Below, piece after piece: positions 19,750 through 37,900 of a stretch of 64,000 bases of DNA. Source of the DNA: Candidatus Obscuribacterales bacterium. GTDB taxonomy: Bacteria; Cyanobacteriota; Vampirovibrionia; Obscuribacterales; Obscuribacteraceae. The first letter of the stretch is position 1, and each line of letters begins with the position of its first letter. The notes beneath the pieces were generated by a model. The model was not told the DNA's origin, searched no databases, and saw only the letters and a list, made by a program, of their open reading frames with translations. The position numbers were made by a program, and so were the translations under genes. The stretch is taken from the NCBI GenBank assembly GCA_019744775.1, contig JAIETZ010000006.1, positions 41,092 to 105,091 of the forward strand, given 5' to 3'.

Positions 19750-19762
19750 TTAAATATATAAT
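19750..19762 (+). promoter_or_regulatory. AT-only motif TTAAATATATA(AT) shared by both spacers; contains TATAAT (19757-19762). Candidate -10 region for gene 2
   Basis: The same 11-mer TTAAATATATA occurs at 31740-31750, upstream of gene 3. I found no convincing -35 hexamer at 16-18 nt spacing. Confidence 0.3.
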
Positions 19763-19843
19763 TCTCACAGAACCTATGAAAGAAAGTTCTGTCACTTCTA
19801 TATAGCACCCTGACTTACTCAGTCCCCTGTGCCCGGAATCCCA

Positions 19844-19918
19844 ATGAAGAAATCCCTACTAGCACTACCCCTGGCATTTTTGCTGACGTTCAATTATCTG
19901 CCTCTGCCGCTTCAAGCT
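19844..19918 (+). other. Sec-type signal peptide of gene 2
   Basis: The sequence is MKKSLLALPLAFLLTFNYLPLPLQA/QEAP, with two Lys followed by a ~20-residue hydrophobic stretch. The cleavage site is uncertain by a few residues (LQA|QE or QEA|P). There is no lipobox Cys. Confidence 0.65.
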
Positions 19919-22900
19919 CAAGAGGCACCTGTTGATGGAGCTGCTGCCCAAAGCACCCCTGCTCCTGTAGTGCTGGACCATACTTCGCTTGGGCAATTAG
20001 CTGATCTAGTGATCAACCCACAACAAACCGTTGCTATTGACTTCGGCTCCCTAACAGGTGGATTGACGCTGCCCGGCAACCTGACAAACAATGGTTCAAT
20101 TTACGCCTATTCAACCAACCCCAACGTAAACATCGGCTCCATTAACGCCAATAACATCTATAACAATGCCGGCGGCTTAATTACTTCAGTCATTCCGCAA
20201 GGTGGTATCCCTGGGCTCTCACTAAACCTGGCGAATCTGGTCAGTAATTTCAGCCTCAATCTAACAGCAGTAAACAACATAGTTAATGCCGGAATGATTT
20301 CCAGCGCCGGCAACCTATCAATGACAGCAGGCGGCACCATCACGAATGCCGCCACGCAAGCAAATTTGGCAGCCATGTTAACAGCAGTCAACACTGTTAA
20401 CCTAACAGCAAGCAATATTGTGAATAGCGGCATAATTTCGGCTATGCAAGGCAACATCAATCTCGCCTCAAAACTCTCTACAGATTTAATCCTGAACAAT
20501 GTCAATGGTCAATTGTCGGCATTGAACGGCATAATCAACGCTCGAGACTTAAGTTACCTCGGCGCTATGAATACCATTCTTCATGGTGGTGATTTTCTAT
20601 CCAGAGAACTAAATATTTATTCCGGAGATGGCATTGTCGATGTTAACGTCAACGACATTTTAGGAACGGTCAATATTAATGCCGGTTGCGCCCATGTCCA
20701 GGCTGCAACTGACAATTTACTTTTAGGCTCGCTGATTATTACAGGCGATCCAACCTACTACAACACTCTAGGTTCCATTACAGTAACCGGTCCTGTATCG
20801 ACAACTTCCGGACAGAACCTGGCTTTTGCCGCCCGGCAGGACATAACCGTCAGCGGTAATATCTCAACAATTGCCAGTACTTCAACTAACGGTACGCTTA
20901 TATTTATTGCCGGGGCAAATATTACCGGACCAACACCATTAGCAAATACTCAAATCAACAACAATACTGCCAACACAGTAACCATTGCCTCCGGTTCCGG
21001 TTCGACAACAGGCGGGGCTATTAACTTAACAGGGTCAGGTAACACCATCACAACCAGCGGTGGCAACTTAACCATGGTTGCTTTTAGTGGATCCGGTGCC
21101 GGTTCTGCTCTCACACCAGGCACGATAAGTGTTCAGCAATCTATATCAACAGCCGGCAGTGGTACTGGCTTCAATGGCAGCGTGACAATGATAGCCGGAG
21201 CAACTTCAGGCGCCGGTATTACCACAAGTGCTATTAACACAGGTGGTGGCTCAGGTTCAAATGGTGGCGCTATTACACTTAGAACTGCCGCTCCAAGCAC
21301 CAATAGCAGCACATCACTCACCAACGGCACCCTCACAGGAGGCTTCACAGCCGGCAGCACGACAGCTGCCTCTGTTACTACCGGTGCCTTAACTACCATT
21401 GGCTCAACCAGTACAAGCGGCCGCGCAGGCGGAGCCATCAACATTACAGCCGGCACCTCCATCACCACGGGCGCAATTGCCACAATCGGTGGCACGGGCA
21501 CTAGCAACACGGCAGCTGATGGTGGCGCCGGTGGTGCAGCAGGGAGCGTCACATTCAATGCCGGCGGCAATATTTCGGTGGGCAATATTAGTGCCTATGG
21601 GGGCACCGGGGGAAGCTTCACCGGTACCAGCGGCAGCGCTTATTACGGCGGCGCCGGTGGCGCCGGCGCAGCAGTCAGCCTGGTGACGACAGGTGACAGC
21701 TCCAGCATAAGCAGCGGCTTCATCAATACATCGGGCGGTGCTACAGGTACAGGTGGCTATAATTCCGGCACAATTTCAGGAAGCTCAGCAGGAGCCCAAG
21801 CCGGTGGCTCTGCAGGAACAATTACACTTACCGCCCCTGGCGGCATAAGTGCCGGTTACTTACGAGCATTTGGTGCAGGCGGTGAAGGTGGCAATAACGG
21901 TAGCAGCGGAGTTATCGGCACACAAGGCGGCAATGGGGGCGCAGGAGCTGCCGTATCACTAACTTCCACCGCCGGTGCTATCACTTTGACAGGTGATATC
22001 AATACTTCAGGCGGCGGTGGCGGTGGCACGGGAAATTCCGGTGGCACGGCTACAGGTGGCACCGGTGGTGCAGCAGGAAATATTAGTATCAATGGAGCTG
22101 GAGTTGTCCAAATTACCGGTCCTGTGTTGGCAGCAGCCGGAGGCGGCGGCAATGGCAGCAGCGCCTCTTGCTGCGGTGGTGGCGGTGGTGCCAGTTTCGG
22201 TGGTGGCGGCGGCGGCGCCGACGGCGGCAGTGCAGGCGGCGGTCTCTTCGGCGGCGGCGGCACATCCAACTGGGGAAGCGCCTCAGGCGGCAGCGCCGTT
22301 TCCGGCGGCGTTTCAAAAAACCCGCAAGGAAGTGCCGGCGTAACGAACGGTTCGGTCGGACAAGGCGGCAACAGTTTTGATACTACTCCTAACGCCAGCC
22401 GAACAGGCGGTGTCTTTGGCGTAGGTGGCGTCGGTACAAATGCAACTGCCAATCAAGTAGGGCAAGCAGGACAAGGAAATATGGGGGGAGCCGCCGGTTC
22501 CACCAACGGTAATATCACCATCTCCGGTGGCAGCGTGTCTTTAACAGGCACTGTTTCAAGCTTTTATCCTGGTTCAACAGGGGGATCCACAGGCTTCACC
22601 AGTTCACCTTATTCTGATGTTTCAATCTATGGAGGCACGACCGGTCAAGCTGTCCAAATAACAGCCACCAGTGGTGATGTTTCCATTGCAGGTACTCTCA
22701 ATCTCTCAGGAGTAGATAGAAGCGGACAAACAAATGGAGCCGCCGGTGGAGCAGCAGCCGGCTTAACGGTATCTGCTTCATCAGGATCAATCAGCCTAGG
22801 TGGCATTACTGCTGTCGGCGGCAGCGGTGCTTCCACCACCAGCGCCGTGGGTGGCGCAGGTGGTGCAGGCGGAGCAATAAGTTTAACTGCCGGACAAAAC

Positions 22901-25900
22901 GTCACAGTCGCCGGCGCCATTAATCTAGCGGGCGGACTTGGTGGCACATCAACTTCTTCCAGCTTCAATGGAGGTGTCGGTGGTGCCGGTGGCAGCTTAT
23001 CCTTAAATGCCAACGGCATTGTTTCACTTGCCGGCAGCGTTTCAACAGCCGGAGGTACCGGAGGTACAAATTCATCACGCACAGGTGGTACCGGCGGACA
23101 GGGAGGCTCAGTTACAATTACCGATACGGCAGGACCTATAACAATCACAGGCAATGTCAGCACAGCCGGTGGCACCGGGGGCACAGGCTCGACTCAAGGC
23201 AACGGTGCAGCCGGCGGAGCCATGTCCATTCAAACAACAAACTACGGCGCTGTCACAGTCTCAGGCAATCTAAATACCTCCGGCGGCAATGGACCAACAG
23301 TTGGTCAACCGGGAGCGATTACAGTCAGAGCTAACAGCAATTTTGCTTCACAGGGTTTTGCCTCTCCCGGCAGTCCTATCTTTATAAGTGGTTATATTCT
23401 TGCTCAAGCAGGTGGCACAAGCCGCAGCGCCTTAACCTCCGGTGCAGGTGCTATTACATTAGCAGGCAATGCTGTAGCCATAAACGGCACGACAAATATA
23501 AGTGGAACAAATTACAGTATCTTCGGTGGCTCCTCGGTCAATATCACATCACCCGGTGCCACCATCGGTCAGAACTATGCTTCTGCCAGTGATCTCAGTT
23601 CAACAAACACCGTCACCAATGGTATTTCTACTGTGGGTTTTAGCGGCAACAACACGAGTGCAACCTTTGCAATGGGTTCAAGTGGCAGCAAAGGTCAAAT
23701 CGCCAGCCGCATCAACGGTACCAGTGACACCATTACCATCAATACGGCTCCTAACAGCGGACATCCAACCGCTCATAATATCCTCGATACCTCACCACAG
23801 ACATTTACGGGTGGTTCTGCCGGGCTGCTTTACCGCGACAGTGGCAACACCGTGCGCTCAGTAACTTCAGCAAGCACTATGACTGCGGCAAAACGTATTG
23901 CCGTCATCCAAAACCTATATGCCGGCACTCAGACACTGATAGTTGATACAACAAACACCCCGATTGCAACAGGCGGAAGCTTTGAGATAGCCTCAGTCAA
24001 TTTTCCAACGGCAGGCGACAATGGCGGCAACTTCTCAACCTTAGTTATTCCAGCATCAGTTACAGCCAACGTCACAACAACTACCGTCATTCCGGCAAAC
24101 GGACCCACAGTTGGTCCAATTACTATTAACGGCACGCTTAGCTTCAATGCCACTTCGGGATCATCTTCCGGTGGTATCAATGCTGCGGGCAACATTACAA
24201 CCGGTGCCTCCGGATTGATAACCAGCACGCAAACTACAACAGTAAGCCTGACTTCGACAGCAAATAGTATTGGCTCATCCGGATCTCCGCTGAAAGTAAG
24301 TTTGTCTAATCTGGCATTGAACGCAGCCAACGGCTCTGTCTATGCCAATGATCAATTATCCAGCGGCAACATCACACTTAACAACTCAGGAGTCAATACA
24401 TCAACAGGCACATTCCAATTCCAAGTCACTGCAACAAGCGGCAACCTGCTCACAGGTGCTTCACAAACAATTAGCGGCAAGACACTTGTTATAACATCCA
24501 CTAGCGGCAGTATCGGTACATCCGGTTCCACTGTAGCTGTGAACACAGGGCTGCTGACAGCTTCTGCTTCAAGTGGCAACGTCTATATAACCGATAGCGC
24601 CAAGGTCATCTTGCAGGACAATGGCGCCTTCACCAACGGAGCCTCAACATCAAGCGGCACCTTCTCCATAACTGATACAAATGCGGCCGGCTCCGGCAAT
24701 ACTGCAATTGCATTTAGCGGACCAACAACAATTAGTGCCGCAACTGTAATTCTCAATGCCAGTACCAGTGGTGATGTTGGCACATCAGCAACACCCATAG
24801 CAATTATCGCAGGTACAGTCGCTCTCAATGCACCTAACGGTTCTGTTTACGTCAATGACTCTTTGTCAACCGGAAATATCACAATAAACAATTCCGGCGC
24901 CAACACATCCAACGGTAGATTCCAATTTAGAGCAACTGCTACAAGCGGCAACATCTTAACCGGTGGTTCTCAAACTATTACCGGCAACAATGTCATTCTT
25001 GCTTCCACAAACGGCAGCATTGGTTCAACCTCTTCACTGGTTGCTGTAAATACCGGTCTTTTGACCGCACAAGCTACAAATGGTTCTTCTTATATAACCG
25101 ACAGCGCACGCGTAACACTGCAAGACAACAACGGCTTTTCCAATGCCGCCAGTTCTTCCGGTACATTTTATGTAATAGACACTAACGCAGCCGGTGCCGG
25201 TACCACTGCCATCGCCTTCTCCGGACCAACAGGAATCGCAGCCGGCACTCTAGTTCTGCGTGCCAGTGTCAGTGGCGACATCGGTACAACCAGCAACCGT
25301 ATCACAACCAGTGCAACGAATATTACAGCTAATGCTCAATCAGGATCTGTATACATAACTGATACCAGTAACTCAAATGTCAATTTACAAAATACAACAA
25401 TCGGCAGCACGATACAAAACTCAGCCGGCAATACATTCAGCCTTGTAACCAATCAAAACCTAACTACCGTTAACAGTTTTGCTGCAATCAACAACTTATC
25501 CCTAACATCGACCAACGGCGCAGTCGATCTCTCCGGCATATTGTCGGCAGGCTCTGTTACAGCAAGCGGTGGCAGTTTAACTGTTTCCGCCGGCACCAAT
25601 ATAGTAGCTCCAGGAAATGTTTCAGCAGTAACTTACAATACATCCGGCGTTAACGGCACTAATGGAACATCTTCAGGCGGTACAGGCAATGCAGGCGGAG
25701 CAATAACACTTACAGCCGGACTCACTTCAACATCAGGCGTCATCACGCTACCAAATCTCTCACTCACAGCTAACGGCGGTAATGGTGGCACAGCCAGCAG
25801 CTCCGGCGGTACAGGCGGTCAAGGTGCGACCGGCGGCAACATAACAGTTGCAGCAAGTGGCACTATTTCCCTTAATGCAATAAGTGCCAACGGTGGCAAC

Positions 25901-28900
25901 GGCGGCAGCAAAATTGGCGGCGGCAACGGCACCGGTGGAGCCGCCGGCGCAGGCGCCACAGCGATGATTATTTCAACAGGAGACAATGTAAATCTAGGTA
26001 CTATCACTGCAACAGGCGGTACTGGCGGCAACGGAGCGGTCAGCGGTAGCAACGGTAACGGCGGTGCCGGAGGCAAAATCGATATCGAGAGCCAGAAAAA
26101 ATCCATCTCTATAACCGGCAATGTAGACGCCTCCGGTGGCATAGCCGGTACGGGCGGTAGCGGTGGCAGCGTTGGACAACCAACAGGAACATCGGGACAC
26201 AGTATTCAATTGATGGCTGTTGGCTCTCTGGCAGTAACCGGTTATGTGGCAGCAGCAGCCGGTGGCTCGGCAGCTAATACTATTACCGCTACAAATGCCG
26301 ACATAATTATGTACGGCAAGACAGTTAATTTGTCAGCAACAGGCACAAGCCTCTTTGGCGGTACCGGCGGCTATAACGCTTTCGGCGGCTCTTCCATGAC
26401 AATCGTAGCGCCAGGAACATCGACACTGACTCAGTACAGCACTAACTTGGATCTGACTACAACTTCAACAGTTTCCATGGTTGCTTTCACCGGTGGCACA
26501 TTTACGGTCGGCACAACACCTGTGCCCGGTGGCAACGGAGCTGCTGCCCAGCTGGGAACTAAAGCGGGTTCGACGCTTTCAATTAACGGCATCAATACTC
26601 CAAATCCGGTGAATAGCACTTCAACACCACGCACTTTCGCTGGCAACTTGGTCGTTATATACAATGGTAACTCCTTCATGACCGTTGCTCCGGCTCAAGC
26701 AGTGACACCTGCTCAGTGGGTAGCAGCAGTTCAAGTTTCAACAACAAGCTCGCAAGATGTCACTCTCAATGCAGGCGGCACCGGCACGCAAGTATCCGGC
26801 ATATTCACGCTTGCAGATTCCAATTATCCGTTAATTACAGCTGCTGGCGGCACATCGACGACTTTCACCAACATCAATATTCCATTAGGGGTTACTGAAA
26901 ATGTCACCACTACCAATACGGTTACCTCCACCGGCAACGTAACAATTAACGGCTCCTTGAATTTCCAATCGGGATCATCTGGTGCACTCACCGCCTCCGG
27001 CAATAACTTAACTATTGCCGCCAATGGCACCATTCAGTCAGCAAGTGGCAATTTGGCTATTACTGCAATCGGTACCGGTTCAGGTCTGGTTGTAGGCAGC
27101 TCAGGTATTGTGGCTTCAGCCGGAGGCAATCTCTCAATTACAACAGGAGCAGTTAATAACGGTGGCTTGATTACAACCTCACAAAATAACGGCACAATTA
27201 CCATTCAAAATGCCAACACAATGACATTGACCGGCAATGGTTCAATAACATCAACAGGAACTGGAGTTAGTTCAATCCTCATTCAAACAACCGGCAACAC
27301 TCACTCACTGACGATAAATGGCTCATGGACTTACGATCCAGGAATTGCCGGTTCCACAACCATTTCTGCAATAACGACAGGCAGCCCGCTCACTTTTGGT
27401 GCATCCACTACGCAGAATATAGCCAGCGGTACTCTTACCGTAAGTTCTCGCACGGTAGTTCTCGGCGATGGCGCGCTCATACAAAGCCAAAGCTCAACTG
27501 GCACTGCAATCACCATCGACAACGGTGCTGCTGGAGCAACTCTAGTTGTGCAGGGACCATCCGGAGGATCAGCAACCATTCAAACAAATGGAGCAGATAT
27601 TCAAATACAAACAACTAACACAAGACAAATTACGTTCGACAAATCGAGCACTGCCGCTACGACACTTAACTTCAATACGCAAGGTCTTGGCACGGTTATT
27701 ACAAGCAACAATACAGATCAAAACATAAACAGTTTGGTTACCTTTGCCTCCGACAGCAACATTCAAATGAACATCAATGGCAACAATAACCTCAACTTAA
27801 ACGGAACAATCAATTCCTCCAAATCATCGGGTTCTATTGTTGCGCAGAGTACAACTGATTTAAACATAGCCGGAACAGGTACTATCGCCTTCACCGGCGG
27901 CGCTTCAGGCACAATTCAATTAATTGCTAATGGCGCAAATAGTCTAGCCTTCATTGGTAATACAACCATGGATCCAGGTGCAGCAGGCTCAGCAATATTC
28001 AAATCACAAACAGCCGGCGGCATTATTTCAATTGCATCAGGGACAATACAAACTGTGCAATCAGGTGCTTCGATCTTGGTGAGCGCACAGAATTTTCGCT
28101 TCTTGGGTGACGGTGCTGCTCTTGTTGCAACAGGATCCTCCAACATCACTTTCGATTCGGGTACCGCCGGCAATAACCTTCTAGTAAGAACTCAGGCAGG
28201 CACGACAACAGGCGGCATATCGACTGCTGGTGGCACGATTCTTTTCACGCCACTAACTGACGGCACACTGACATTTTCAAAAACTACTGGAGCCGACGCC
28301 ATCCTTATCCTGTCAACAGGCGGCTCCGGACTTGTTAAAACAGTGTCGGCTGCCAACACAGCCATCAACGCCGGCGTTATCTTATCTGCCGACAGCAACA
28401 TTGAAGTAAACGTCAATGGCGGCAATACAGCAACAGTAAACGGAACGATTACAACGAACAAAGCTGCTGCCAACTTGCTCATTCAAAGTACAACCAATCT
28501 AACTCTTGCCGGCACCGGCATCTTGGCAGTCACCGGCAGTGGCAGTAAATACATAACAGTTCAGGCACAAGGCGCCAATGCGCTGACAGTTGCTGCATCA
28601 CTGACATACAATGCTGATGTAGATACTTACGTGCAATTGCAATCAACAGCTTCCGGAGGCTCAGTTGCATTTAACAACAACACCGCGCAGACGATAACCG
28701 GCAGTGCTTATGGTCAAGTTATTGCTACTCAAATAACTTTCAGCGGTAATGCCACATTTACAAACTCGGCAGGCTATCTAGATTTAACTGGCGATCAACT
28801 GTCCACAAATATTACTCTTACCAATAGCAGAACCGTGACTTTGGATTTGCCTGGCGGTGTAGCGTTCATTGGCTCATATGCTGCGCAGCCGTTGGTAATA

Positions 28901-31657
28901 ACAAAGACGACAGGCACCGGCAATTCAACATTGCAAGTCAACAACGAGTTACAGACATTTTCTAATGGCGCCGATACTACTATCGACACGCGTGTCATTC
29001 TTTCATCTAATAACAACATTACAGTAAATACAGATGGCGGCGCCTTGAATGTCAACGGCACAATAACTTCAAGTGCAGCAAATGGCAACATCACTATCTC
29101 AAGCCGCAATGGCAGTTTAGTAATGGGCGGCTCACCAACAGGAAGTATTTCCGTAACCGGCGGTGGCTTAGCATCAATTCTTGTTCTAGTACAAGGCATT
29201 TCAACTGCTCTGACAATGAACTCCAACTACACTTTTAACGCCGGCGCCTCCGGAACAGTCAATGTCATTGCTGATCAAATTACATTCGGTGCTGGTACAA
29301 CCACCACCATAACAGGCACTAGCGCACTAGCCTTCTACGGACAAAATATTATCTTCGGCAATGCAGCAACCATAACAAGTGCCAATACAGTTAGCCTATT
29401 TGCTTCAGGCGGCAGCAATCTGCTGACGATAACCACACCGGACAACGGTTCGGCTAACATCAATGTCTCTTCCGGTCAGATAGTAGTTCAAGGTACTTCA
29501 CTGGCATTTGCTAAAACTGCCGGAGTTAATAGTTCAACTCTTAATCTGAACAATGCCAATGTATACATGCAAAGTTCCAACGGTAACACATCGATAAATA
29601 GCAACGTCATTGTTCAGTCCAATCGCAACATCACCCTCGAAGTCAGCGGCAATCACAACTTTGCACTAGAGGGGACGCTCAAATCCAGCAACAATGCCGG
29701 CGTAATCAACATTTCCGGCAGCGGCGGTGTAACAATCTCAGGCAGCACTGCCGGGACTGTGCAGATGACAGGCAGCGGCGCTAATAACATTAGCCTTATC
29801 GGCTATGACTCAGGACTAACCGTTAACAACTCAATTACTCTTGATGCAGGATCATCGGGCACAGCAACAATCGGTGCCTCCTGCTGCGCCATGACTCTGG
29901 CAGCAAATAAAACAATTACCTTCGCCAATCAAACTGCAGGCAGAGTTCAAGCGACAACTTTACTTTTAAGCGGCAACAACACAATTACAGGCAGCAAAAC
30001 AAGTGGCACAGCGCTCACTATTTATTCTCCAAATCCCAATCCGTTTACCTTGAACCTGCAAGCTAATACCTCCTCCACAATTGCCAGCTCCGGTGGTGCA
30101 ATCAATATAGATTCACCAAAAAACATCACAATAGGCATAAGCGGCGGTACCGGCTCCAGTACTGCAACACTTAATTTCACCGGTGGCAATGTCACGATGA
30201 CCGCCAACGAAGGAACAACGGTGATAAGTTCACGCGTAACAATCAATTCGCAGAAAGATATTACCTTCAATGTAAACCAAGCAACAATTGGTGCTAATGG
30301 ACAGATAAATACATCTCTGGGATCAATCACCTTAATTGCCGCCACAGGAACAATAAGCATAGGCAATAACGTGACGATGTACGCCAATGAAGGCAATCTC
30401 ACCATTCAGAATACAAATGCGGCCGCAGGCGCCATTGATATTGCCAGCGGCGCCAACCTGACTGGCTATACAACCGGTAATCCGGCATTGGGCTTCGTCA
30501 ATATCGTCATCGGACCAATTCCCGCGATGCCTGTTGTCGGCAGCGTTCCAGCTAATGTCACCGTCAATGAGTCAGGTGGCGGAGTTGTTTATTTCGGACA
30601 AAATAGTATTAACGCATCTGCACCAAATAACACAATTAATGCTAAGGGCAGAAATGTTGTCTTCAGCACAGGCGGACAAGGCTCATCAGCTATTACACTA
30701 GGGGGCAACGTCACCATAACAGCTGACCCACCACTTCCAAGTGATGCAACGGCAAGTCAATCAACAGCTCCAACATTGTCTTTTGCAACAACAATTCCAA
30801 CAACGACTGCAGTACATCAGACAATTTCCACTACCGTTATCCCGTTTGATACCAGTCCGGCATCATCAGTCGGTACGCTTGTTGGCAATGACACGTTGAA
30901 CAACTCGGTTAATCAAGCACTTAACGCCGCATTCCCTGCGACAGAAGATGAACTACGGAAGCACAAAGACAACGATGTTTACAGCAATTTAGATCCCACA
31001 GTTTCGCCATATCAGCCGATAAGCTACTCACCTGGACTGGAATACCAACGTTTAAAACCTGCTGACAGCAAGAGTGAAATCTACACATTTGAAACAGCCG
31101 GCACATCAATTAAGTGTGTCGGTGGTGCCAGAGTACTCGTTAATGAACCGGGTGTTGTCGCGGTAAAGCAAGGTGACGTGGTCATTGCTGCTAACAAAGG
31201 CAAAACAACCGTTCGCTCCGGAGATGCAATCATAACGATAGATTCCTCAACAATTGCCTTTATTAGCCAAGAAGGCAACTCGCTGAAAATTCGTAATCTA
31301 TACGAGACAGGCGGCGATTCTATGTGCGTTGTCGTCGACGGAAAACAATTTCACGTCGCCGTTGGACATGAAGTCATCATCAGTGAAAATGAAGCTGTTT
31401 ACAAAGAAAGCAAACACGACAAAGTAGGCAGACGTCACACAAAAGCCATTGACTCTCAATGCGACAAACATATTGCAACATGTGAATTCTCATTGTTGTC
31501 TCTTATCGAGACAAGCAAAATACTGAGACAAATTTGCCACAGCAACGAAGCAGATGACAAAGCTATAGAAGCTCGCTTGGTTAAAATGGCAGCTTGCTTA
31601 ATGCTCACTACTAGCTCGCATGGAGCCTACACGGATGATATAAAAGGTGGGCAGTAA
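19844..31657 (+). CDS. Giant secreted beta-solenoid-type repeat protein, paralogue 2 (complete, 3,937 aa from ATG 19844)
   Basis: The ORF track lists 19829..31657 from a GTG. The ATG at 19844 gives MKKSLLALPLAFLLTFNYLPLPLQAQE, a Sec-type signal peptide, so I prefer 19844. TAA stop at 31655-31657. From about 22.7 kb onward it is collinear with the last ~11 kb of gene 1. Confidence 0.9.
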   Translation: MKKSLLALPLAFLLTFNYLPLPLQAQEAPVDGAAAQSTPAPVVLDHTSLGQLADLVINPQQTVAIDFGSLTGGLTLPGNLTNNGSIYAYSTNPNVNIGSINANNIYNNAGGLITSVIPQGGIPGLSLNLANLVSNFSLNLTAVNNIVNAGMISSAGNLSMTAGGTITNAATQANLAAMLTAVNTVNLTASNIVNSGIISAMQGNINLASKLSTDLILNNVNGQLSALNGIINARDLSYLGAMNTILHGGDFLSRELNIYSGDGIVDVNVNDILGTVNINAGCAHVQAATDNLLLGSLIITGDPTYYNTLGSITVTGPVSTTSGQNLAFAARQDITVSGNISTIASTSTNGTLIFIAGANITGPTPLANTQINNNTANTVTIASGSGSTTGGAINLTGSGNTITTSGGNLTMVAFSGSGAGSALTPGTISVQQSISTAGSGTGFNGSVTMIAGATSGAGITTSAINTGGGSGSNGGAITLRTAAPSTNSSTSLTNGTLTGGFTAGSTTAASVTTGALTTIGSTSTSGRAGGAINITAGTSITTGAIATIGGTGTSNTAADGGAGGAAGSVTFNAGGNISVGNISAYGGTGGSFTGTSGSAYYGGAGGAGAAVSLVTTGDSSSISSGFINTSGGATGTGGYNSGTISGSSAGAQAGGSAGTITLTAPGGISAGYLRAFGAGGEGGNNGSSGVIGTQGGNGGAGAAVSLTSTAGAITLTGDINTSGGGGGGTGNSGGTATGGTGGAAGNISINGAGVVQITGPVLAAAGGGGNGSSASCCGGGGGASFGGGGGGADGGSAGGGLFGGGGTSNWGSASGGSAVSGGVSKNPQGSAGVTNGSVGQGGNSFDTTPNASRTGGVFGVGGVGTNATANQVGQAGQGNMGGAAGSTNGNITISGGSVSLTGTVSSFYPGSTGGSTGFTSSPYSDVSIYGGTTGQAVQITATSGDVSIAGTLNLSGVDRSGQTNGAAGGAAAGLTVSASSGSISLGGITAVGGSGASTTSAVGGAGGAGGAISLTAGQNVTVAGAINLAGGLGGTSTSSSFNGGVGGAGGSLSLNANGIVSLAGSVSTAGGTGGTNSSRTGGTGGQGGSVTITDTAGPITITGNVSTAGGTGGTGSTQGNGAAGGAMSIQTTNYGAVTVSGNLNTSGGNGPTVGQPGAITVRANSNFASQGFASPGSPIFISGYILAQAGGTSRSALTSGAGAITLAGNAVAINGTTNISGTNYSIFGGSSVNITSPGATIGQNYASASDLSSTNTVTNGISTVGFSGNNTSATFAMGSSGSKGQIASRINGTSDTITINTAPNSGHPTAHNILDTSPQTFTGGSAGLLYRDSGNTVRSVTSASTMTAAKRIAVIQNLYAGTQTLIVDTTNTPIATGGSFEIASVNFPTAGDNGGNFSTLVIPASVTANVTTTTVIPANGPTVGPITINGTLSFNATSGSSSGGINAAGNITTGASGLITSTQTTTVSLTSTANSIGSSGSPLKVSLSNLALNAANGSVYANDQLSSGNITLNNSGVNTSTGTFQFQVTATSGNLLTGASQTISGKTLVITSTSGSIGTSGSTVAVNTGLLTASASSGNVYITDSAKVILQDNGAFTNGASTSSGTFSITDTNAAGSGNTAIAFSGPTTISAATVILNASTSGDVGTSATPIAIIAGTVALNAPNGSVYVNDSLSTGNITINNSGANTSNGRFQFRATATSGNILTGGSQTITGNNVILASTNGSIGSTSSLVAVNTGLLTAQATNGSSYITDSARVTLQDNNGFSNAASSSGTFYVIDTNAAGAGTTAIAFSGPTGIAAGTLVLRASVSGDIGTTSNRITTSATNITANAQSGSVYITDTSNSNVNLQNTTIGSTIQNSAGNTFSLVTNQNLTTVNSFAAINNLSLTSTNGAVDLSGILSAGSVTASGGSLTVSAGTNIVAPGNVSAVTYNTSGVNGTNGTSSGGTGNAGGAITLTAGLTSTSGVITLPNLSLTANGGNGGTASSSGGTGGQGATGGNITVAASGTISLNAISANGGNGGSKIGGGNGTGGAAGAGATAMIISTGDNVNLGTITATGGTGGNGAVSGSNGNGGAGGKIDIESQKKSISITGNVDASGGIAGTGGSGGSVGQPTGTSGHSIQLMAVGSLAVTGYVAAAAGGSAANTITATNADIIMYGKTVNLSATGTSLFGGTGGYNAFGGSSMTIVAPGTSTLTQYSTNLDLTTTSTVSMVAFTGGTFTVGTTPVPGGNGAAAQLGTKAGSTLSINGINTPNPVNSTSTPRTFAGNLVVIYNGNSFMTVAPAQAVTPAQWVAAVQVSTTSSQDVTLNAGGTGTQVSGIFTLADSNYPLITAAGGTSTTFTNINIPLGVTENVTTTNTVTSTGNVTINGSLNFQSGSSGALTASGNNLTIAANGTIQSASGNLAITAIGTGSGLVVGSSGIVASAGGNLSITTGAVNNGGLITTSQNNGTITIQNANTMTLTGNGSITSTGTGVSSILIQTTGNTHSLTINGSWTYDPGIAGSTTISAITTGSPLTFGASTTQNIASGTLTVSSRTVVLGDGALIQSQSSTGTAITIDNGAAGATLVVQGPSGGSATIQTNGADIQIQTTNTRQITFDKSSTAATTLNFNTQGLGTVITSNNTDQNINSLVTFASDSNIQMNINGNNNLNLNGTINSSKSSGSIVAQSTTDLNIAGTGTIAFTGGASGTIQLIANGANSLAFIGNTTMDPGAAGSAIFKSQTAGGIISIASGTIQTVQSGASILVSAQNFRFLGDGAALVATGSSNITFDSGTAGNNLLVRTQAGTTTGGISTAGGTILFTPLTDGTLTFSKTTGADAILILSTGGSGLVKTVSAANTAINAGVILSADSNIEVNVNGGNTATVNGTITTNKAAANLLIQSTTNLTLAGTGILAVTGSGSKYITVQAQGANALTVAASLTYNADVDTYVQLQSTASGGSVAFNNNTAQTITGSAYGQVIATQITFSGNATFTNSAGYLDLTGDQLSTNITLTNSRTVTLDLPGGVAFIGSYAAQPLVITKTTGTGNSTLQVNNELQTFSNGADTTIDTRVILSSNNNITVNTDGGALNVNGTITSSAANGNITISSRNGSLVMGGSPTGSISVTGGGLASILVLVQGISTALTMNSNYTFNAGASGTVNVIADQITFGAGTTTTITGTSALAFYGQNIIFGNAATITSANTVSLFASGGSNLLTITTPDNGSANINVSSGQIVVQGTSLAFAKTAGVNSSTLNLNNANVYMQSSNGNTSINSNVIVQSNRNITLEVSGNHNFALEGTLKSSNNAGVINISGSGGVTISGSTAGTVQMTGSGANNISLIGYDSGLTVNNSITLDAGSSGTATIGASCCAMTLAANKTITFANQTAGRVQATTLLLSGNNTITGSKTSGTALTIYSPNPNPFTLNLQANTSSTIASSGGAINIDSPKNITIGISGGTGSSTATLNFTGGNVTMTANEGTTVISSRVTINSQKDITFNVNQATIGANGQINTSLGSITLIAATGTISIGNNVTMYANEGNLTIQNTNAAAGAIDIASGANLTGYTTGNPALGFVNIVIGPIPAMPVVGSVPANVTVNESGGGVVYFGQNSINASAPNNTINAKGRNVVFSTGGQGSSAITLGGNVTITADPPLPSDATASQSTAPTLSFATTIPTTTAVHQTISTTVIPFDTSPASSVGTLVGNDTLNNSVNQALNAAFPATEDELRKHKDNDVYSNLDPTVSPYQPISYSPGLEYQRLKPADSKSEIYTFETAGTSIKCVGGARVLVNEPGVVAVKQGDVVIAANKGKTTVRSGDAIITIDSSTIAFISQEGNSLKIRNLYETGGDSMCVVVDGKQFHVAVGHEVIISENEAVYKESKHDKVGRRHTKAIDSQCDKHIATCEFSLLSLIETSKILRQICHSNEADDKAIEARLVKMAACLMLTTSSHGAYTDDIKGGQ
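19919..20800 (+). other. Conserved N-terminal head domain (gene 2)
   Basis: It aligns collinearly with gene 3. Examples are NANNIYNNAGGLITS vs NAANIFNNAGATISS, and VNNIVNAGMISSAGNLSMTAGGTITN vs VNNIVNAGTITSAGNLSMMAGGSITN. GGDFLSRELNIYSGDGIV matches GGDFLSHQLNMYSGDGIV, and ITGDPTYYNT is present in both. Confidence 0.7.
22000..22460 (+). repeat. Hyper-glycine low-complexity tract of gene 2, (GGN)n at the DNA level
   Basis: The translation reads TSGGGGGGTGNSGG...AAAGGGGNGSSASCCGGGGGASFGGGGGGADGGSAGGGLFGGGGTSNWGSASGG. The DNA contains runs such as ggcggcggtggcggtggc and ggcggcggcggc. Confidence 0.85.
22720..25246 (+). repeat. Supermodule copy (gene 2; subtype-I insert, lacks the LVxRA lead)
   Basis: GGxGG rungs run from ~22720. 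GQPGAITVRANSNFAS is at ~23303 and LVIPASVTANVTTT at ~24040-24085. It is collinear with gene 1 copies 1 and 2. Confidence 0.75.
24317..25330 (+). repeat. Tandem duplication of a 169-aa (507-nt) C-like unit in gene 2
   Basis: LNAANGSVYANDQLSSGNITLNNSG starts at Leu 24317. LNAPNGSVYVNDSLSTGNITINNSG starts at Leu 24824, which is 507 nt later. Each gene 1 supermodule carries only one such unit. Confidence 0.8.
25247..26915 (+). repeat. Supermodule terminal variant (gene 2; subtype-II insert)
   Basis: It starts at TLVLRASVSGDIGTTSN (Thr codon 25247). It contains GSVGQPTGTSGHSIQLMAVG..., TPAQWVAAVQV and NINIPLGVTENV. It is the orthologous position to gene 1 copy 3. Confidence 0.75.
28495..30733 (+). 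other. Shared C-terminal beta-helix module of gene 2
   Basis: It has the same motif order as gene 1. ITADPP lies at 30716-30733. Confidence 0.85.
31052..31392 (+). other. FecR-like beta domain (inferred) of gene 2, followed by a helical tail to 31654
   Basis: The sequence is LKPADSKSEIYTFETAGTSIKCVGGARVLVNEPGVVAVKQGDVVIAANKGKTTVRSGDAIITIDSSTIAFISQEGNSLKIRNLY..VVVDGKQFHVAVGHEVII. It is collinear with gene 1. Confidence 0.4.
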
Positions 31658-31727: not shown

Positions 31728-31739
31728 CGGAAAAGTAGT

Positions 31740-31768
31740 TTAAATATATATATGCGAGGGCATATAAA
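31740..31768 (+). promoter_or_regulatory. AT-rich motif TTAAATATATA plus (TA)5 and the palindrome TATATG-n6-CATATA; candidate promoter or operator for gene 3
   Basis: The 11-mer is shared with the gene 2 spacer. TATAAA lies at 31763-31768 with TTTAAA 18 nt upstream. The inverted repeat is 31749-31754 / 31761-31766. Confidence 0.3.
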
Positions 31769-31872: not shown

Positions 31873-31977
31873 ATGGGTACAAGTAGGTCTTTACTACCAA
31901 CCAAGGTGCTAATGGTTTTATTAACCTGGCAGTTGATTCTGCCGGGATTTTTGGCGTTTCCGCCCGCTGCATACGCT
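31873..31977 (+). other. Sec-type signal peptide of gene 3
   Basis: The sequence is MGTSRSLLPTKVLMVLLTWQLILPGFLAFPPAAYA|QDAS. It has a basic n-region (R5, K11), a hydrophobic core and an A-Y-A site, followed by a Pro/Ala-rich linker (TPPAAPAPAPTP). Confidence 0.65.
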
Positions 31978-34900
31978 CAAGATGCCTCAACTCCACCCGC
32001 TGCCCCTGCTCCCGCCCCCACCCCTGACCTCGACTTAAGCTCTGCCGCAAAAAATTTCACAGCCCCGACCAACCTTAGTCCGACCAATATTACTGTCGGT
32101 GGTCAGACCGTAACGGTCCAAGCATCGCAAGCACTAACTGCAGCTGAATTTGTTGCCGTGCGCCAAGTTATGAATACAGGTAACCAGTACCTACAATTAA
32201 ACGATCTCGGGGTAGCAGTGGGTGGCGGACTTAGATTAAATCCGACCCTAATGACCGGCATTGGCAACCTTGTCGTACCTGAAAGTGTGAGAGTGTCTCA
32301 AAACGCTGCAGTTTTACAAAGCCTCAACTTGGCAGGCAACTTCGTCAATTCGGGCACCTACAATATCTTTTCGTCCAACCCGGCAGTGACAGCCGCCAGT
32401 ATTAACGCCGCCAATATTTTCAACAATGCCGGCGCCACAATAAGTTCGTCTTTAGCCAACCTCACCCTTAATGCAGTCAACAACATAGTCAACGCCGGAA
32501 CAATCACCAGCGCCGGCAATTTGTCCATGATGGCCGGTGGTTCAATTACCAACACCGGGGCACTGGCAATGATGTCGGCGCTCAACAATATAAACATGAC
32601 CGCCAACAACATCGTCAACAGCGGTGTCATTCAATCACAATTGGCCAACATCAACATCGCCTCGCAAATGGCCAGCAATTTAGCCATGAACAACATGGCA
32701 GGACAATTAAAAGCGCTCAGCGGCAATATCAACTTCCGCGATTTAGCATTTTCCGGCAAGCACAACTTGAGTCTCATCGGTGGAGATTTCTTGTCTCACC
32801 AACTGAACATGTACTCCGGCGACGGAATTGTGAATGCCGATATAGGCAACGTCACCGGTCAAATAAACATCTCAGCCGGTGAAGCACATGTTAGTGCAGC
32901 AACAAACAATTTAAACCTGGGCAACATGAACATAACCGGAGATCCGACGTATTACAACACTGCAGGCGATGTTACAATTTCCGGTAATCTTGGTACCAGC
33001 ACTACGCCTTTAACAGTTTTAGCCATAGTTGCCAGCGGCAATATTCTTACAACTACAGGTGCCGGTTCGATAGACACTCGTGGACTATCAGGCAATGGTG
33101 GAGCGATAACTATGGTCGCCGGCGCCAAGTTTACTTCCGATGGTCCGGCATCCGGTAGTAATGACACCACATCTACTCTCACAATCACCGGCGCATCGCT
33201 CACCGGCGGCAAAATCGACTTAAATACAGGTGCGGCAATCTCTTACATCGGTTCGTCCAGTACAGGTGGCGTTGGTAATGGCGGCAACATCCAATTAGTA
33301 GCCTTTGCCGGCTCGGCTTCCGACTCAGGCACAATTACATTGCCGACAAGCACCCCGGTTTTTGCCAACGGCAATGGCGGCGGTAATGGTGGTGCCATCT
33401 CCATGATAGCCGGAGCCAATTCCGGCACTGCAATTACGACCGGCGATCTAACTTCTACCGGAGCAAGTGGAACAGGCAGCATAGCTCTGGCAACGGCACA
33501 GCCGACTATTTTTACTATATTCAATGACCCAAATGTAATCATCTCACCTGGAGGAGCCATAGGCTCAGGAGCCTTTATTGCCGGTGCCACCACAGGAGCT
33601 TCCATATCAACTCAAAACCTGCAAACATCAGCAGGAACAGTAAGCATCACTGCCGGTAATAACGCCGGCATCAACACAATTACAAATGCCGGTGGCACGG
33701 TCACAATAAATACCACCAGCTCAACAGCCTTCAATATTGGCGGCGGTGGTGTCAACGGCACCACTGGAGCAATTACTGCCAATAACACATCCGGGCAAGG
33801 GGGTACTATTTCCATAACCAATAACGGTTCCGGCGGCATCACGCACAACACAACTGCCAACCTCAGTGTCACCTCAGCCGGCAACGGACGAGGCGGGGCG
33901 ATTATACTCAATGCAATCGGCACAGGCGCAGGTGGACCATTAACCATCGGTACAGGCGCCACAGCAGTCACCATTTCAGCCAATGCTATCGGCACAGGCT
34001 CCGTCGGTGTCGCACCTGCAGCGAACATAAGTTTGCTAGGCACAACGTTGAGCTTCAGCACAAACGGTCTAACGCTAAGTTCGACAGGCGGCACGTCAGG
34101 CGCCGGCGGCAAAGTTAATGTCTCAGTCTTAGGTGGCACATTAACAGCCGGTACAGCTACTTCTCTCATCATCAACGCAACAGGTGGTGGCACATCCGGT
34201 GCGGGGGGCACGATAAGTCTCGCCTCAAGCGGAGCTTTGGCAGTTACAACTGGCGCCAATTTTACCAACGCGCCCACAAATGGTGCCGGTGGCGTCTATA
34301 ACCTCACGTCATATGGCTCTTCCGTCACGGTGACCGGTGCTCTGAGCGCTAGCGCTGTCGGCGCTAATGGTGGCGCGGGCGGCAATATATTCGCCTCTGC
34401 CGCGACCACGGCTAGTTTCTCCAGCACAGTCAGTGCAAGCGCAATTGGTTCTATCGGCGGAGCAGGCGGCACTATCTCAATACTGAGTAATAGCGGCACG
34501 ACTTTTAATATCGGTGGCGGCGGCGGCAACGGCACAGGTGGTGCAATCACTGCTAATGCCGTTACAGGCGGTCAGGGCGGACAGCTATACATCACAAACA
34601 ATGGTACGGGCGGTATCACACACAATACTACCGCCAACGTAAGCGTCACTTCTGCCGGCAACGGGTTGGGTGGACTTGTCCAACTGGATGCCGTCGGCTC
34701 AGGTAGCGGTGGTGCGTTAGTAATCGGAAATGGCGGAACGGCTGTTACCATATCAGCTAATGCATCGGGCTCAGGGTCAGTCGGAACATCCAACAACAAC
34801 ATCCTTCTCTATGGAACAACAATCACTTCTGCAAATGGTTTGACATTAAATGCAACCGGTGGCACTACGGGTGCCGGCGGCAAAATTATAGTGTCGACGT

Positions 34901-37900
34901 CCAACTCCGGAATAACAGCAGGCTCCGCCACTTTCGTGGTCAACGCCGTGGGCGGATCGACTTCCGGCGCCGGTGGGCAAATAACTCTAAATTCATCCGG
35001 CGCTCTAGCTGTAACCACAGGAGCTAATTTCACTGCCGCGCCAACTAATGGTGCCGGTCCTTCATATACTTTCATCTCCACTGGTTCTACTATCGCTGTC
35101 ACCGGCGCCCTGAGTGCCAGCGCCGTTGGTGCAAACGGTGGTGCCGGCGGCAGTATTTACGCCAACGCATTTAGCAGTGCCGGTTTCTCCAGCACTGTCT
35201 CAGCCAGCGCCCTAGGCAGTACAGGTGGTGCAGGCGGAACAATTACCATTTTCTCCAATAGCAGTTCGCCATTCAATATTGGTGGTTCGTCAACGCAGGG
35301 AACAAGTGGCGCCATTACCGCCAATGCGGTAACGGGCGGACAAGGCGGACAAGTATTCATTACTAATAATGGCATTGGTGGTATCACTCACAACACTACA
35401 GCCAATATCAGCGTGACTGCTGCCGGCAATGGACTAGGCGGCGTGGTATCACTAGACGCAGTTGGCACGAACAGCTTAGGTGGCACCCTCACACTAGGTA
35501 CCGGCACGGCTGTCACCATCACCGCCAGTGCCGCAGGCTCTGGAACCGTCGGCTCAGCTGTTACCAACAACATATTTTTGAAGGGATCAACAATCAGCTT
35601 CGTCACCAATGGTCCCATTCTTACCGCTTCAGGCGGCACAACAGGTGCCGGTGGCAACATCTATATTGAAGCCACCAATGGAGCACTCACTGCCGGCACC
35701 GCAGCCACATTAAGGCCGACAGCTACCGGTGGTTCCACATCAGGTGCCGGTGGCACTATTACCATTAAATCATCGGGCAATTTGTCGGTAACACCTGGAG
35801 CGGGAGTGTTCACCGCAGCTCCTGTCAGTGGCGCCGGTCCAACATACAACTTAATTTCTACGCAGGGTTCCGTGACGGTCACGGCAGCTCTAAGCGCCAG
35901 TGCTGTCGGCGGAATAGGCGGCAATGGCGGCAACATCACCGCCACAGCCGGCACCACCGTTGGTTTCACTGGTGCATTAAGCGCCAGTGCTCTTGTGAGC
36001 GGCAATGGCGGCAGTATTACTATCACCTCCAACAGCTCCACAACCTTCGCTGTCGGCGGCTCCGGCACCCAAGGAACCAGCACCACCATAGCCGCTAATG
36101 CAGTGTCGGCAGGACAAGGCGGCAAAATTTTTATTACAAATAACGGCACGGGTGGTATCACCCACAATACTTCCGCCAACTTAAGCGTCACTGCGGCAGG
36201 CAATGGCTTAGGAGGCGTAATCTCACTCGATGCCGTCGGCAGCAACAGTGTTGGCGGACCTTTGACCTTAAACGCAGCAGGAGGTGTCGCCATAACCGCC
36301 AGTGCAATAGGATCCGGTACTGTAGGTGTTGCAGTCAGCAATAATATTTTTCTCAAGGGCGAATCCCTTGTCATGGGCGCAGGCGGCGTCCAAGCCAACA
36401 CTACAGGAGGCACAACAGGCGCCGGCGGCAAAATAACCGTGCAGATTACCAATGGAGCGCTCACAATCGGAACAGCAGCTACCTTGCGCTTGAGCGCAAT
36501 TGGCGGCGGTACCTCTGGAGCCGGAGGCACCATAACCATTTCATCGAGTGGTGCACTGACTGCTACGCCTGGTGCCAACTTCACTGCTTCCCCGACAAAT
36601 GGTGCCGGTCCCATATTCTCTTTAACTTCAACTGGTTCTTCTGTAACAACGTTAGCAGCGTTGAGCGCCAGCGCCACAGGAGCTGCCGGAGGCGCCGGCG
36701 GGTCGATAACTATAAATGCAGCAACGACTGCCAATATTACGGGAGCACTGGGCGCGAGTGCTTCGGGCTCAACCGGAGGTAATGGCGGCGTCATAAGCAT
36801 AAGCAGCAATAGCGACTCTACATTCAATATTGGCGGTTCCGCCACTCAAGGGACGAGCGGCGCTCTCTTGGCCAATGCAGCTACTTCCGGACAAGGCGGG
36901 GTTATAACCATAATTAACAACGGCGTAGGTGGTATCACGCATAACACATCCGCAAATATCAGCGTGACAGCCGCCGGCAATGGACTGGGCGGCTCGGTGA
37001 CCCTCGATGCAGTCGGCACCGGCACCGGCGGTCCTCTGCAAATAGGCACCGGCGGCACCGCAGTCACCATTGCCGCAAATGCGTCGGGAACAGGAGCTGT
37101 CGGAACAGCACCTACGACAAACATCAGCTTAAAAGGCACCACTCTTGCCTATAGCAGTCTCGGCTTAACTCTGCAAGCAACTGGTGGCACAACCGCGCCG
37201 GCAGGCGGCAAGATTTCGGTACAAGTTACAGACGGAGCCATTCAGACAGGTGCCAGCAACTCGCTTTTGATTAGCGCGGTCGGTGGCTCAACATCCGGCG
37301 CAGGAGGCACCATTACCATTAGCGCCAAGGGTGCTCTTGCTGTTACTCCGGGCGCCAACTTCACAGCCGCACCCACAAGCGGCAAGGGCGGCAACTACAA
37401 CCTTACTTCCACCAACGATTCTGTGTCCATAATTGGCGGTAGCTTATCAGCTAATGGTGTCACGTCAGGCGCCGGTGGCTCAATCACCATATCGGCAGGA
37501 CAAAACAATTCAGTGAGTGGTGGCAGATTATCATTTAGTACCAGTTCATCAACATTGACAGCAAATGGAGCTGGAGGCGGCAATGGTGGCAGCATCAGCG
37601 TGACCGTCAGCAGCCCCTTCGCCTTCAATATTGGCGGCGCAGCAACAAATGCCAATGGCACAGGGGCAGCCATTACAGCTAATTCAGGCGGTTCAGGCGG
37701 CGCTGGCGGGTCTGTAGTTATTACCAGCACAGGCATCGGTGGAATTACCTTACCGGGCAATAACATCTCGGTTAACGCAACCCTCGGCGCCGGCGGCACA
37801 ATAAAGCTTTTAGCTGCTGAAGGACCCATAACAGGACCTCTAAATATCGCCGCCGGTACAACACTCAATGCCGGCTCGACAATGGACGAAGGCGGAGAAA

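Follow-up and report, generated by a model that had tools for sequence, protein, structure and literature searches.

To our knowledge, nothing is known of how the Obscuribacterales export and hold giant proteins that carry a Sec leader and none of the known outer-membrane signatures. The question is raised by a 64-kb stretch of DNA from a Candidatus Obscuribacterales bacterium (contig JAIETZ010000006.1; hereafter the window), the whole content of which is three co-directional giant genes on the + strand (genes 1 to 3; Table 1). We found that their products close with a terminal domain of ~205 residues that belongs to an uncatalogued family, resembles the periplasmic part of FecR proteins in its predicted fold and may dock these proteins on the cell. 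Sec-type leaders ending in A-x-A↓Q were found in genes 2 and 3 and in full-length gene 1, which enters the window without its N-terminal ~866 aa. The last 205 aa of gene 1 are identical to those of MBX9879478.1 (P0005), a 7404-aa hypothetical protein from a Candidatus Obscuribacterales metagenome-assembled genome (MAG). No Pfam family was detected in the ~14,000 residues scanned (gene 1 as in the window, gene 2 and the first 3400 aa of gene 3). The bodies of the three proteins contain 3.0-4.4% D/E/K/R and 64-68% S/T/N/G/A, against 19-24% D/E/K/R in the last 215 aa.

Translations and a motif scan confirmed that the same ordered motifs, described in an earlier reading made from the sequence alone, close all three genes (Table 1). 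A profile hidden Markov model (HMM) of the family matched the tails with E-values of 2.7e-79 (gene 1), 1.6e-80 (gene 2) and 1.4e-16 (truncated gene 3); the conservation of the motifs is therefore not due to chance. The boundaries given to this region required revision. Conservation between the paralogues does not begin at ITADPP, as had been proposed: the ~800 aa before it, a beta-helical stalk, align almost without gaps and are 50-87% identical across the three genes, the module itself being less conserved (30-46%). Conversely, ITADPP and TTVIPFD were confined to a few of the closest relatives, and family-wide conservation was restricted to the last ~205 aa, from PISYSP to the end. Similarly, the linker had been described as the only strongly charged stretch; the bodies are indeed nearly uncharged, but a second charge-dense stretch (..DKVGRRHTK..) lies inside the terminal domain. 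Judged by its composition, the ~100-aa linker is predicted to be flexible. The TTVIPFD(T/S)SP segment in the linker (18813-18842, 30830-30859 and 63598-63627) may resemble a TonB box in character (acidic/T-hydrophobic-hydrophobic-V), a possible likeness of some interest beside a FecR-fold domain.

To define the family, an exhaustive HMMER search with the module profile was run against 1.84 billion representatives. It returned 1917 proteins at E<=1e-3, 1010 at E<=1e-10 and 221 at E<=1e-30; a word-indexed protein search was nearly blind to the family (4 and 3 matches). Beyond the closest few relatives, matches spanned profile positions ~103/125-315, corresponding to the last ~190-215 residues. 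The position of the domain was strictly terminal: across 162 proteins, a median of 2 and a maximum of 28 residues separated its end from the C-terminus, and a P(I/V)(S/A/G)(Y/F) motif was found at a fixed distance of ~206 residues from the C-terminus in 108 of 140 members. Four residues of the tail (S177, D182, K191 and A193) were nearly invariant and G204 was invariant. Carriers with Sec leaders ranged from 1,200 to over 7,400 aa, gene 3 of the window exceeding 10,000 aa, and the domain was also encoded by stand-alone genes comprising only a Sec leader, a linker and the domain, indicating that the exported module suffices in itself and does more than cap the beta-helix. In 57 of the 162 proteins (for example P0012, P0025 and P0104), the beta part alone recurred as a degenerate second copy ~20-35 residues upstream of the terminal domain; the window genes had no such copy. 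P0115 had four matched stretches, one of them near the N-terminus.

Database models did not account for this domain. Pfam searches with six full-length members and 44 tails gave no family besides weak chance matches, and NCBIfam returned nothing for the three tails of the window at E<=1. A 39-position helix model, GGA_N-GAT, matched 8 of the 44 tails (best E 1.2e-6; for example 31550-31609) and was judged to be a coincidental match to a short helix. The ~205-aa terminal domain is an autonomous family of ~1,900 clusters at 50% identity with neither a Pfam nor an NCBIfam model, and our literature search found no description of the family or of FecR-fold tails on giant proteins. Named relatives came from Obscuribacterales/Melainabacteria MAGs, and the LepA encoded beside a distant member (P0048) was 85-90% identical to Melainabacteria/Obscuribacterales LepA. 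A scan of GTDB representative genomes with the TTVIPFD pattern gave a single match, on a contig labelled Chloroflexota bacterium (L003; SBAT01000417.1). This relative was 45% identical over the whole module and was followed by the same methyltransferase gene as on an Obscuribacterales contig (L001). The label is probably a binning error; possibly, the relative was acquired by horizontal transfer.

The C-terminal domain (CTD) came in three subtypes that recurred across other assemblies. Identity was 56-67% within subtype A (gene 1, P0003 and P0006), 61% within subtype B (gene 2 and P0007) and 74-84% within subtype C (gene 3, P0001 and P0002), and only 32-47% between subtypes. The last 300 aa of the stalk were 74-87% identical to relatives in other assemblies, whatever the CTD subtype. 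Conserved subtypes beside such a stalk fit distinct docking specificities. The conservation of the stalk may be due either to strong constraint or to concerted evolution, and the stalk itself may be part of the attachment apparatus.

The sequence-only reading had described the region after PISYSP as a FecR-like domain. This description held for the fold of the beta part and failed at the level of sequence. PF04773 (FecR) gave no match to the three window tails at E<=1 and was absent among the 25 families listed (of 33 matched) for 44 members scanned singly at the same threshold. An alignment of the family profile by hhalign reached a probability of 2.1% with Escherichia coli FecR and 0.8% with a FecR/PupR/BDI_1681 profile. 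Both runs placed the IKx.G.A.V....G...L..GE.LI segment, to which the sequence-only reading had drawn attention, on a stretch conserved in FecR, PupR and BDI_1681, at non-significant scores. A sequence-profile search of the Protein Data Bank (PDB) with the tail was empty.

An AlphaFold2 (AF2) model of the domain, built from a 44-sequence alignment, had a mean predicted local distance difference test score (pLDDT) of 89.6 and a predicted TM-score (pTM) of 0.85. Residues 1-22, which include the PISY motif, were disordered (pLDDT <50), followed by 13 strands at 24-159 and three helices at 161-199. Given the low confidence of the model there, PISYSP is probably a linear motif. When the model was compared with 350,542 PDB chains using Foldseek, the best match was 4m0h_A, a putative anti-sigma factor (E 2e-4, probability 1.0, TM-score over the query (TMq) 0.40, 147 columns). 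The periplasmic domain of PupR, 6ovk_R, came second (E 1.7e-3, probability 1.0, root-mean-square deviation 3.5 Å, 115 columns), and every other match had E>0.02 and a probability of 0.5 or less. Residues 104-316 of E. coli FecR matched both 4m0h_A (4e-40) and 6ovk_R (7e-7) by sequence, indicating that both are true members of the FecR family. FecR-family structures were therefore the only significant PDB neighbours of the domain. A search of the viral structures in BFVD gave nothing significant, the highest probability (0.77) and TMq (0.39) belonging to a phage 'FecR protein'.

The periplasmic part of PupR consists of the CJM, a novel twisted beta-solenoid with two seven-stranded sheets (residues 110-238), followed by an STN subdomain, and both are required to bind the periplasmic domain of the transducer (PMC7186176). 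The window domain shares with FecR and PupR an all-beta part with ~13-14 strands in ~135 residues, as in the CJM, a predicted extracytoplasmic location and a weak, non-significant 'L.DGS.v.L..GE' segment. It differs from them in that homology is undetectable by sequence and that both the cytoplasmic anti-sigma domain and the transmembrane helix are missing. No beta-alpha-beta unit of the STN type was seen in the model, in which three alpha-helices follow the beta part instead. The domain also ends Sec-exported giants or stand-alone leader proteins, whereas FecR is a regulator of ~320 aa. According to the model, the window domain is a FecR-fold domain made of a CJM-like half and a helical tail, and not a member of the FecR family. 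No genes for extracytoplasmic function (ECF) sigma factors or TonB-dependent transducers were found in the window or in loci L004-L010. A Gly-Thr self-cleavage site of the FecR type was considered and rejected for lack of conservation: where the family consensus has 'GT', gene 1 reads QAT and gene 2 SST. A role as an intramolecular chaperone or auto-processing domain was likewise discarded, the corresponding BFVD match having a probability of only 0.07.

We propose, with a probability of roughly 0.4, that the last ~205 residues form an autonomous domain that lies outside the cytoplasm and docks the cell-proximal end of a fibre whose N-terminus points outwards. The N-terminal leader would send the giant protein through Sec, and the N-terminal beta-helix head and the long, nearly uncharged shaft would then exit the cell. 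The C-terminal domain, last out of Sec, would fold on the periplasmic side and remain there, tethered to the shaft across the outer membrane and the wall by the S/T/P-rich linker with its charged run, which by our own estimate would reach about 30 nm if extended. The domain and its P(I/V)(S/A)(Y/F) strand would dock on a partner in the envelope and so hold the fibre on the cell, much as the periplasmic domain of FecR docks on the periplasmic signalling domain of an outer-membrane transducer. This proposal is favoured because the only structural relatives of the domain dock in the periplasm onto outer-membrane proteins, and because the domain is the last part to leave Sec and contrasts with the shaft in being globular and charged. 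Further points in its favour are the flexible linker and the conserved linear motif in front of the domain, the free-standing copies and the divergence of the subtypes beside a near-invariant stalk.

Several points weigh against cell-proximal docking. A FecR link is absent at the sequence level, and the TM-scores of 4m0h_A and 6ovk_R were only 0.37-0.40 over the whole query. The STN subdomain, required for transducer binding (PMC7186176), is missing, which makes the docking analogy a loose one. Across seven distinct family loci (L004-L009 and L013; L010 and L014 are duplicate places), no conserved partner gene was found, including TpsB and components of type I (T1SS) and type IX (T9SS) secretion systems. 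The data establish the domain with its predicted fold and strictly terminal place, the size of the family, the Sec leaders, the stand-alone forms and the lack of known signals; the periplasmic location, docking, retention and fibre orientation are inferred. A more detailed version is more tentative: the Obscuribacterales/Melainabacteria would have an undescribed way of attaching giant beta-helical fibres to a diderm envelope, in which the FecR-fold CTD and its P(I/V)(S/A)(Y/F) strand would dock on a dedicated periplasmic partner, with three docking subtypes and with free-standing copies acting as competitors or placeholders.

None of the signatures by which giant adhesins are known to be secreted or sorted was evident, as the initial reading had stated. 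In the tails, the classical autotransporter barrel (PF03797) gave no match, the C-terminus being modelled as a soluble beta-solenoid with helices, and the NCBIfam scan at E<=1 found no T9SS Por_Secre_tail (TIGR04183). The same scan was empty for LPXTG and PEP-CTERM models, and the last 40 residues form an amphipathic helix with a polar end and no hydrophobic run of transmembrane length. The two-partner secretion (TPS) domain PF05860 had no Pfam match in the residues scanned. A TPS hypothesis for the head was rejected, since its model matched the TPS domains 4i84, 2odl, 1rwr and 4w8r only at E>1 with TM-scores of 0.13-0.29. No TpsB gene was present in the loci examined, although a more distant partner may exist. 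No HemolysinCabind match was found in the window proteins scanned, which have Sec leaders instead. The window proteins resemble the TPS substrates FhaB and CdiA in their Sec leader and giant beta-helical shaft and in having conserved parts at both ends, an N-terminal domain and a C-terminal part that follows a Pro-rich or low-complexity region. In FhaB and CdiA the C-terminal region is retained in the periplasm (in FhaB, the prodomain with its conserved extreme C-terminus), and the same logic is proposed here. The window proteins differ in having no TPS domain, no TpsB in the examined loci and an unrelated C-terminal fold. The RTX adhesins LapA and MpIBP offer the same concept, in that a folded plug at one end keeps the giant fibre in an outer-membrane pore. 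Those adhesins are secreted by a T1SS and without a Sec leader, contain RTX repeats and have an N-terminal plug, whereas the window proteins have Sec leaders, no RTX repeats were found in them and their candidate plug is C-terminal.

The main rival to cell-proximal docking, which we consider unlikely, is that the domain directs export or sorting from the C-terminus, as the T9SS CTD does. Once Sec had delivered the protein to the periplasm, a dedicated outer-membrane translocon would recognise the folded domain, with possible cleavage at P(I/V)(S/A)(Y/F) and with or without covalent attachment of the new C-terminus to the cell surface. The anatomy fits this idea equally well, T9SS cargo of many sizes also having an N-terminal Sec leader and a strictly C-terminal folded domain behind a linker. 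The conserved motif stands at a fixed place ~20 residues ahead of the fold, as would suit a processing site, and a single domain family is spread over ~1,900 cargos of very different lengths. However, TIGR04183 and the other sorting models were unmatched, and the domain has another fold and two to three times the size of a T9SS CTD. Stand-alone copies have no cargo, the degenerate beta copy in 57 of 162 proteins would be odd for a pure signal, and no translocon candidate adjoins the genes. The T9SS is moreover a system of the Bacteroidota, and the named relatives here are Melainabacteria.

An improbable alternative reverses the orientation of the fibre. The N-terminal domain would be cell-proximal, and the FecR-fold domain at the tip would bind a ligand, prey or the N-terminal head of another fibre. 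Both termini are conserved around a hypervariable middle, CTD subtypes could match different ligands and secreted stand-alone copies could serve as soluble binders. The carriers share an N-terminal head of ~320 aa with the pattern LDLSS(T)...LTxAE.VA..QV and a mean column identity of 42%. In gene 3 this LDLSS beta-helix head lies at 32014-32973, with N/G-rich rungs after the motif, and its AF2 model (pLDDT 93.6) had no significant structural neighbour in the PDB. Two side observations concern the heads: instead of LDLSS, the variant VLD..L..L..LV.NPQQTVAIDFG stands at the start of genes 1 and 2 (gene 2 region 19919-20700), and P0007, the subtype-B relative of gene 2, matched only positions 77-318 of the head profile. 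A distal role is countered by the fact that the sole structural relatives of the terminal domain are periplasmic docking domains and that no lectin- or adhesin-like fold was matched. A floppy 100-residue linker would be unusual before a tip adhesin, and a charged, Cys-containing domain contrasts with the surface-exposed shaft.

The family loci lay among ordinary housekeeping genes; some also had sugar-modifying genes, and tandem arrangements with further giants were frequent. A related contig (L008) carried three tandem giants, as in the window. There, genes for a ParE toxin and a small partner, oriented against the giants, separate the second giant gene from the third (10064-10598). Genes for a methyltransferase, a glycosyltransferase, a sugar epimerase and an O-antigen-type ABC exporter were found downstream of several members, although not in all loci (Table 1), a hint that the S/T-rich fibres or linkers may be glycosylated. 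One verified stand-alone copy (L013/L014) was flanked on either side by a set of histidine kinase and response regulator genes, as seen in two independent samples. This neighbourhood, together with a fold from a signal-transducing family, would suit a periplasmic signalling module. Such a module would work like FecR-type signalling in reverse: envelope sensors would register fibre tension or contact by way of the C-terminal domain, and stand-alone copies would modulate the same sensors. We regard this as very improbable: the neighbourhood is a single one, the giant-gene loci have no linked regulators, the protein lacks a transmembrane or cytoplasmic part and the STN subdomain is missing. A polymorphic-toxin-like effector, with a conserved stalk, ITADPP as a demarcation motif and a divergent CTD delivered to target cells, would explain the difference in identity between stalk and CTDs but is largely refuted, as all C-termini belong to one homologous family with one fold, no immunity-sized open reading frame (ORF) occupies the gaps after genes 1 and 2 and no toxin, nuclease or peptidase family or fold was matched.

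Table 1. Coordinates of the genes, motifs and domains discussed. Positions are those of the window unless a locus is named.
Feature	Position	Strand	Remarks
Gene 1, 3' part of a 7404-aa giant beta-helical protein	1..19619	+	Open frame from base 3; cut by window start; CTD subtype A
Gene 2, complete giant protein	19844..31657	+	ATG start, 3937 aa; alternative GTG at 19829, 3942 aa
Gene 2 Sec-type leader, MKKSLLALPLAFLLTFNYLPLPLQA↓QE	N-terminus of gene 2	+	Read from translation
Gene 3	31873..64000	+	Sec-type leader; >10,709 aa, estimated about 10,850; cut by window end
ITADPP, genes 1/2/3	18687 / 30716 / 63448		Start positions
TTVIPFD, genes 1/2/3	18813 / 30830 / 63598		Start positions
PISYSP, genes 1/2/3	18978 / 31016 / 63772		Start positions; second copy in gene 3 at 63796
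AACLML, genes 1/2	19557 / 31589		Start positions
Gene 1 terminal module: ITADPP, linker with TTVIPFDTSP, acidic QDNDDDNDDNN, PISYSP, FecR-fold domain, helical tail	18687..19616	+	Translation, motif scan, HMM
Conserved beta-helical stalk, ~800 aa	28316..30715	+	Identity across the three genes given in text
Gene 2 linker, ~100 aa, S/T/P/A/N-rich	30716..31012	+	TTVIPFDTSP (30830-30859); charged run EDELRKHKDND (within 30935-31003)
Gene 2 PISYSP, window version of the family motif	31016..31033	+	~206 aa from C-terminus
Gene 2 all-beta domain, 13 strands, FecR/PupR CJM twisted beta-solenoid fold (predicted)	31082..31489	+	Model residues 24-159; AF2 pLDDT >90, Foldseek
Gene 2 three-helix tail (predicted) and terminal KMAACLMLTTSSHGAY motif, in place of FecR STN subdomain	31493..31654	+	Helices at model residues 161-199; AF2, alignment
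Gene 3 terminal module, truncated: ITADPP, TTVIPFDSSP, KVKDKDEDKENSK, duplicated PISYSP, first ~68 aa of CTD subtype C	63448..64000	+	76-84% identical to P0001/P0002
Stand-alone copy, L013	9466-10257		263-aa gene in 269-codon stop-to-stop frame; also in second sample (L014 8065-8856)
Stand-alone copy, L015	837-1589		
Sugar-related downstream genes	L001 1109-2472; L003 5356-7391; L004 10937-19514; L006 31311-34435; L009 25114-28390		

The remaining features of the window are minor. The intergenic gaps after genes 1 and 2 measure 209 and 215 bp; neither contains an ORF of more than 38 aa, and promoter and terminator scans of both gaps gave nothing exceeding shuffled sequences. A GTT(T)AAATATATA element is common to the two gaps (~19752-19765 and ~31739-31753), which are otherwise not alignable, and lies ~90-130 nt upstream of the next start; it may be a promoter element, though it was not called by the sigma-70 scan. 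Within gene 2, an extremely Gly-rich stretch with paired cysteines (GNGSSASCCGGGGGASFGGGGGGADGG) breaks the beta-helical repeats at ~21900-22500 (residues ~690-890), and local GC rises there to 0.55. Almost all 2-kb segments had a negative GC skew (cumulative -3.57) and every one had a positive AT skew, a pattern probably due to the codon make-up of the giant genes. ORFs on the minus strand within the giant genes are by-products of composition.

Collectively, the fold itself is known, and the novelty lies in the sequence family, in where it is placed on giant Sec-dependent fibres, in the helices that replace the STN subdomain, in the fixed linear motif and in the lineage. A domain family of ~1,900 clusters has been missing from Pfam and NCBIfam, in a poorly studied, non-photosynthetic sister lineage of the Cyanobacteria. 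It provides one compact, confidently foldable and family-wide element at what would be the cell-facing end of proteins of 4,000 to >10,000 residues, tied to a fold for which docking to outer-membrane proteins in the periplasm is the one characterised role. The 205-aa domain, the linear motif, the three subtypes and the stand-alone copies together give a handle for the hunt for partners. That a new anchoring logic is at work is a plausible and reasonable hypothesis rather than a result. If true, it would be the fourth beside T1SS plugs, type V barrels and TPS, and attachment of the T9SS or sortase type, and the FecR fold would be a general periplasmic docking module, beyond its part in sigma regulators.

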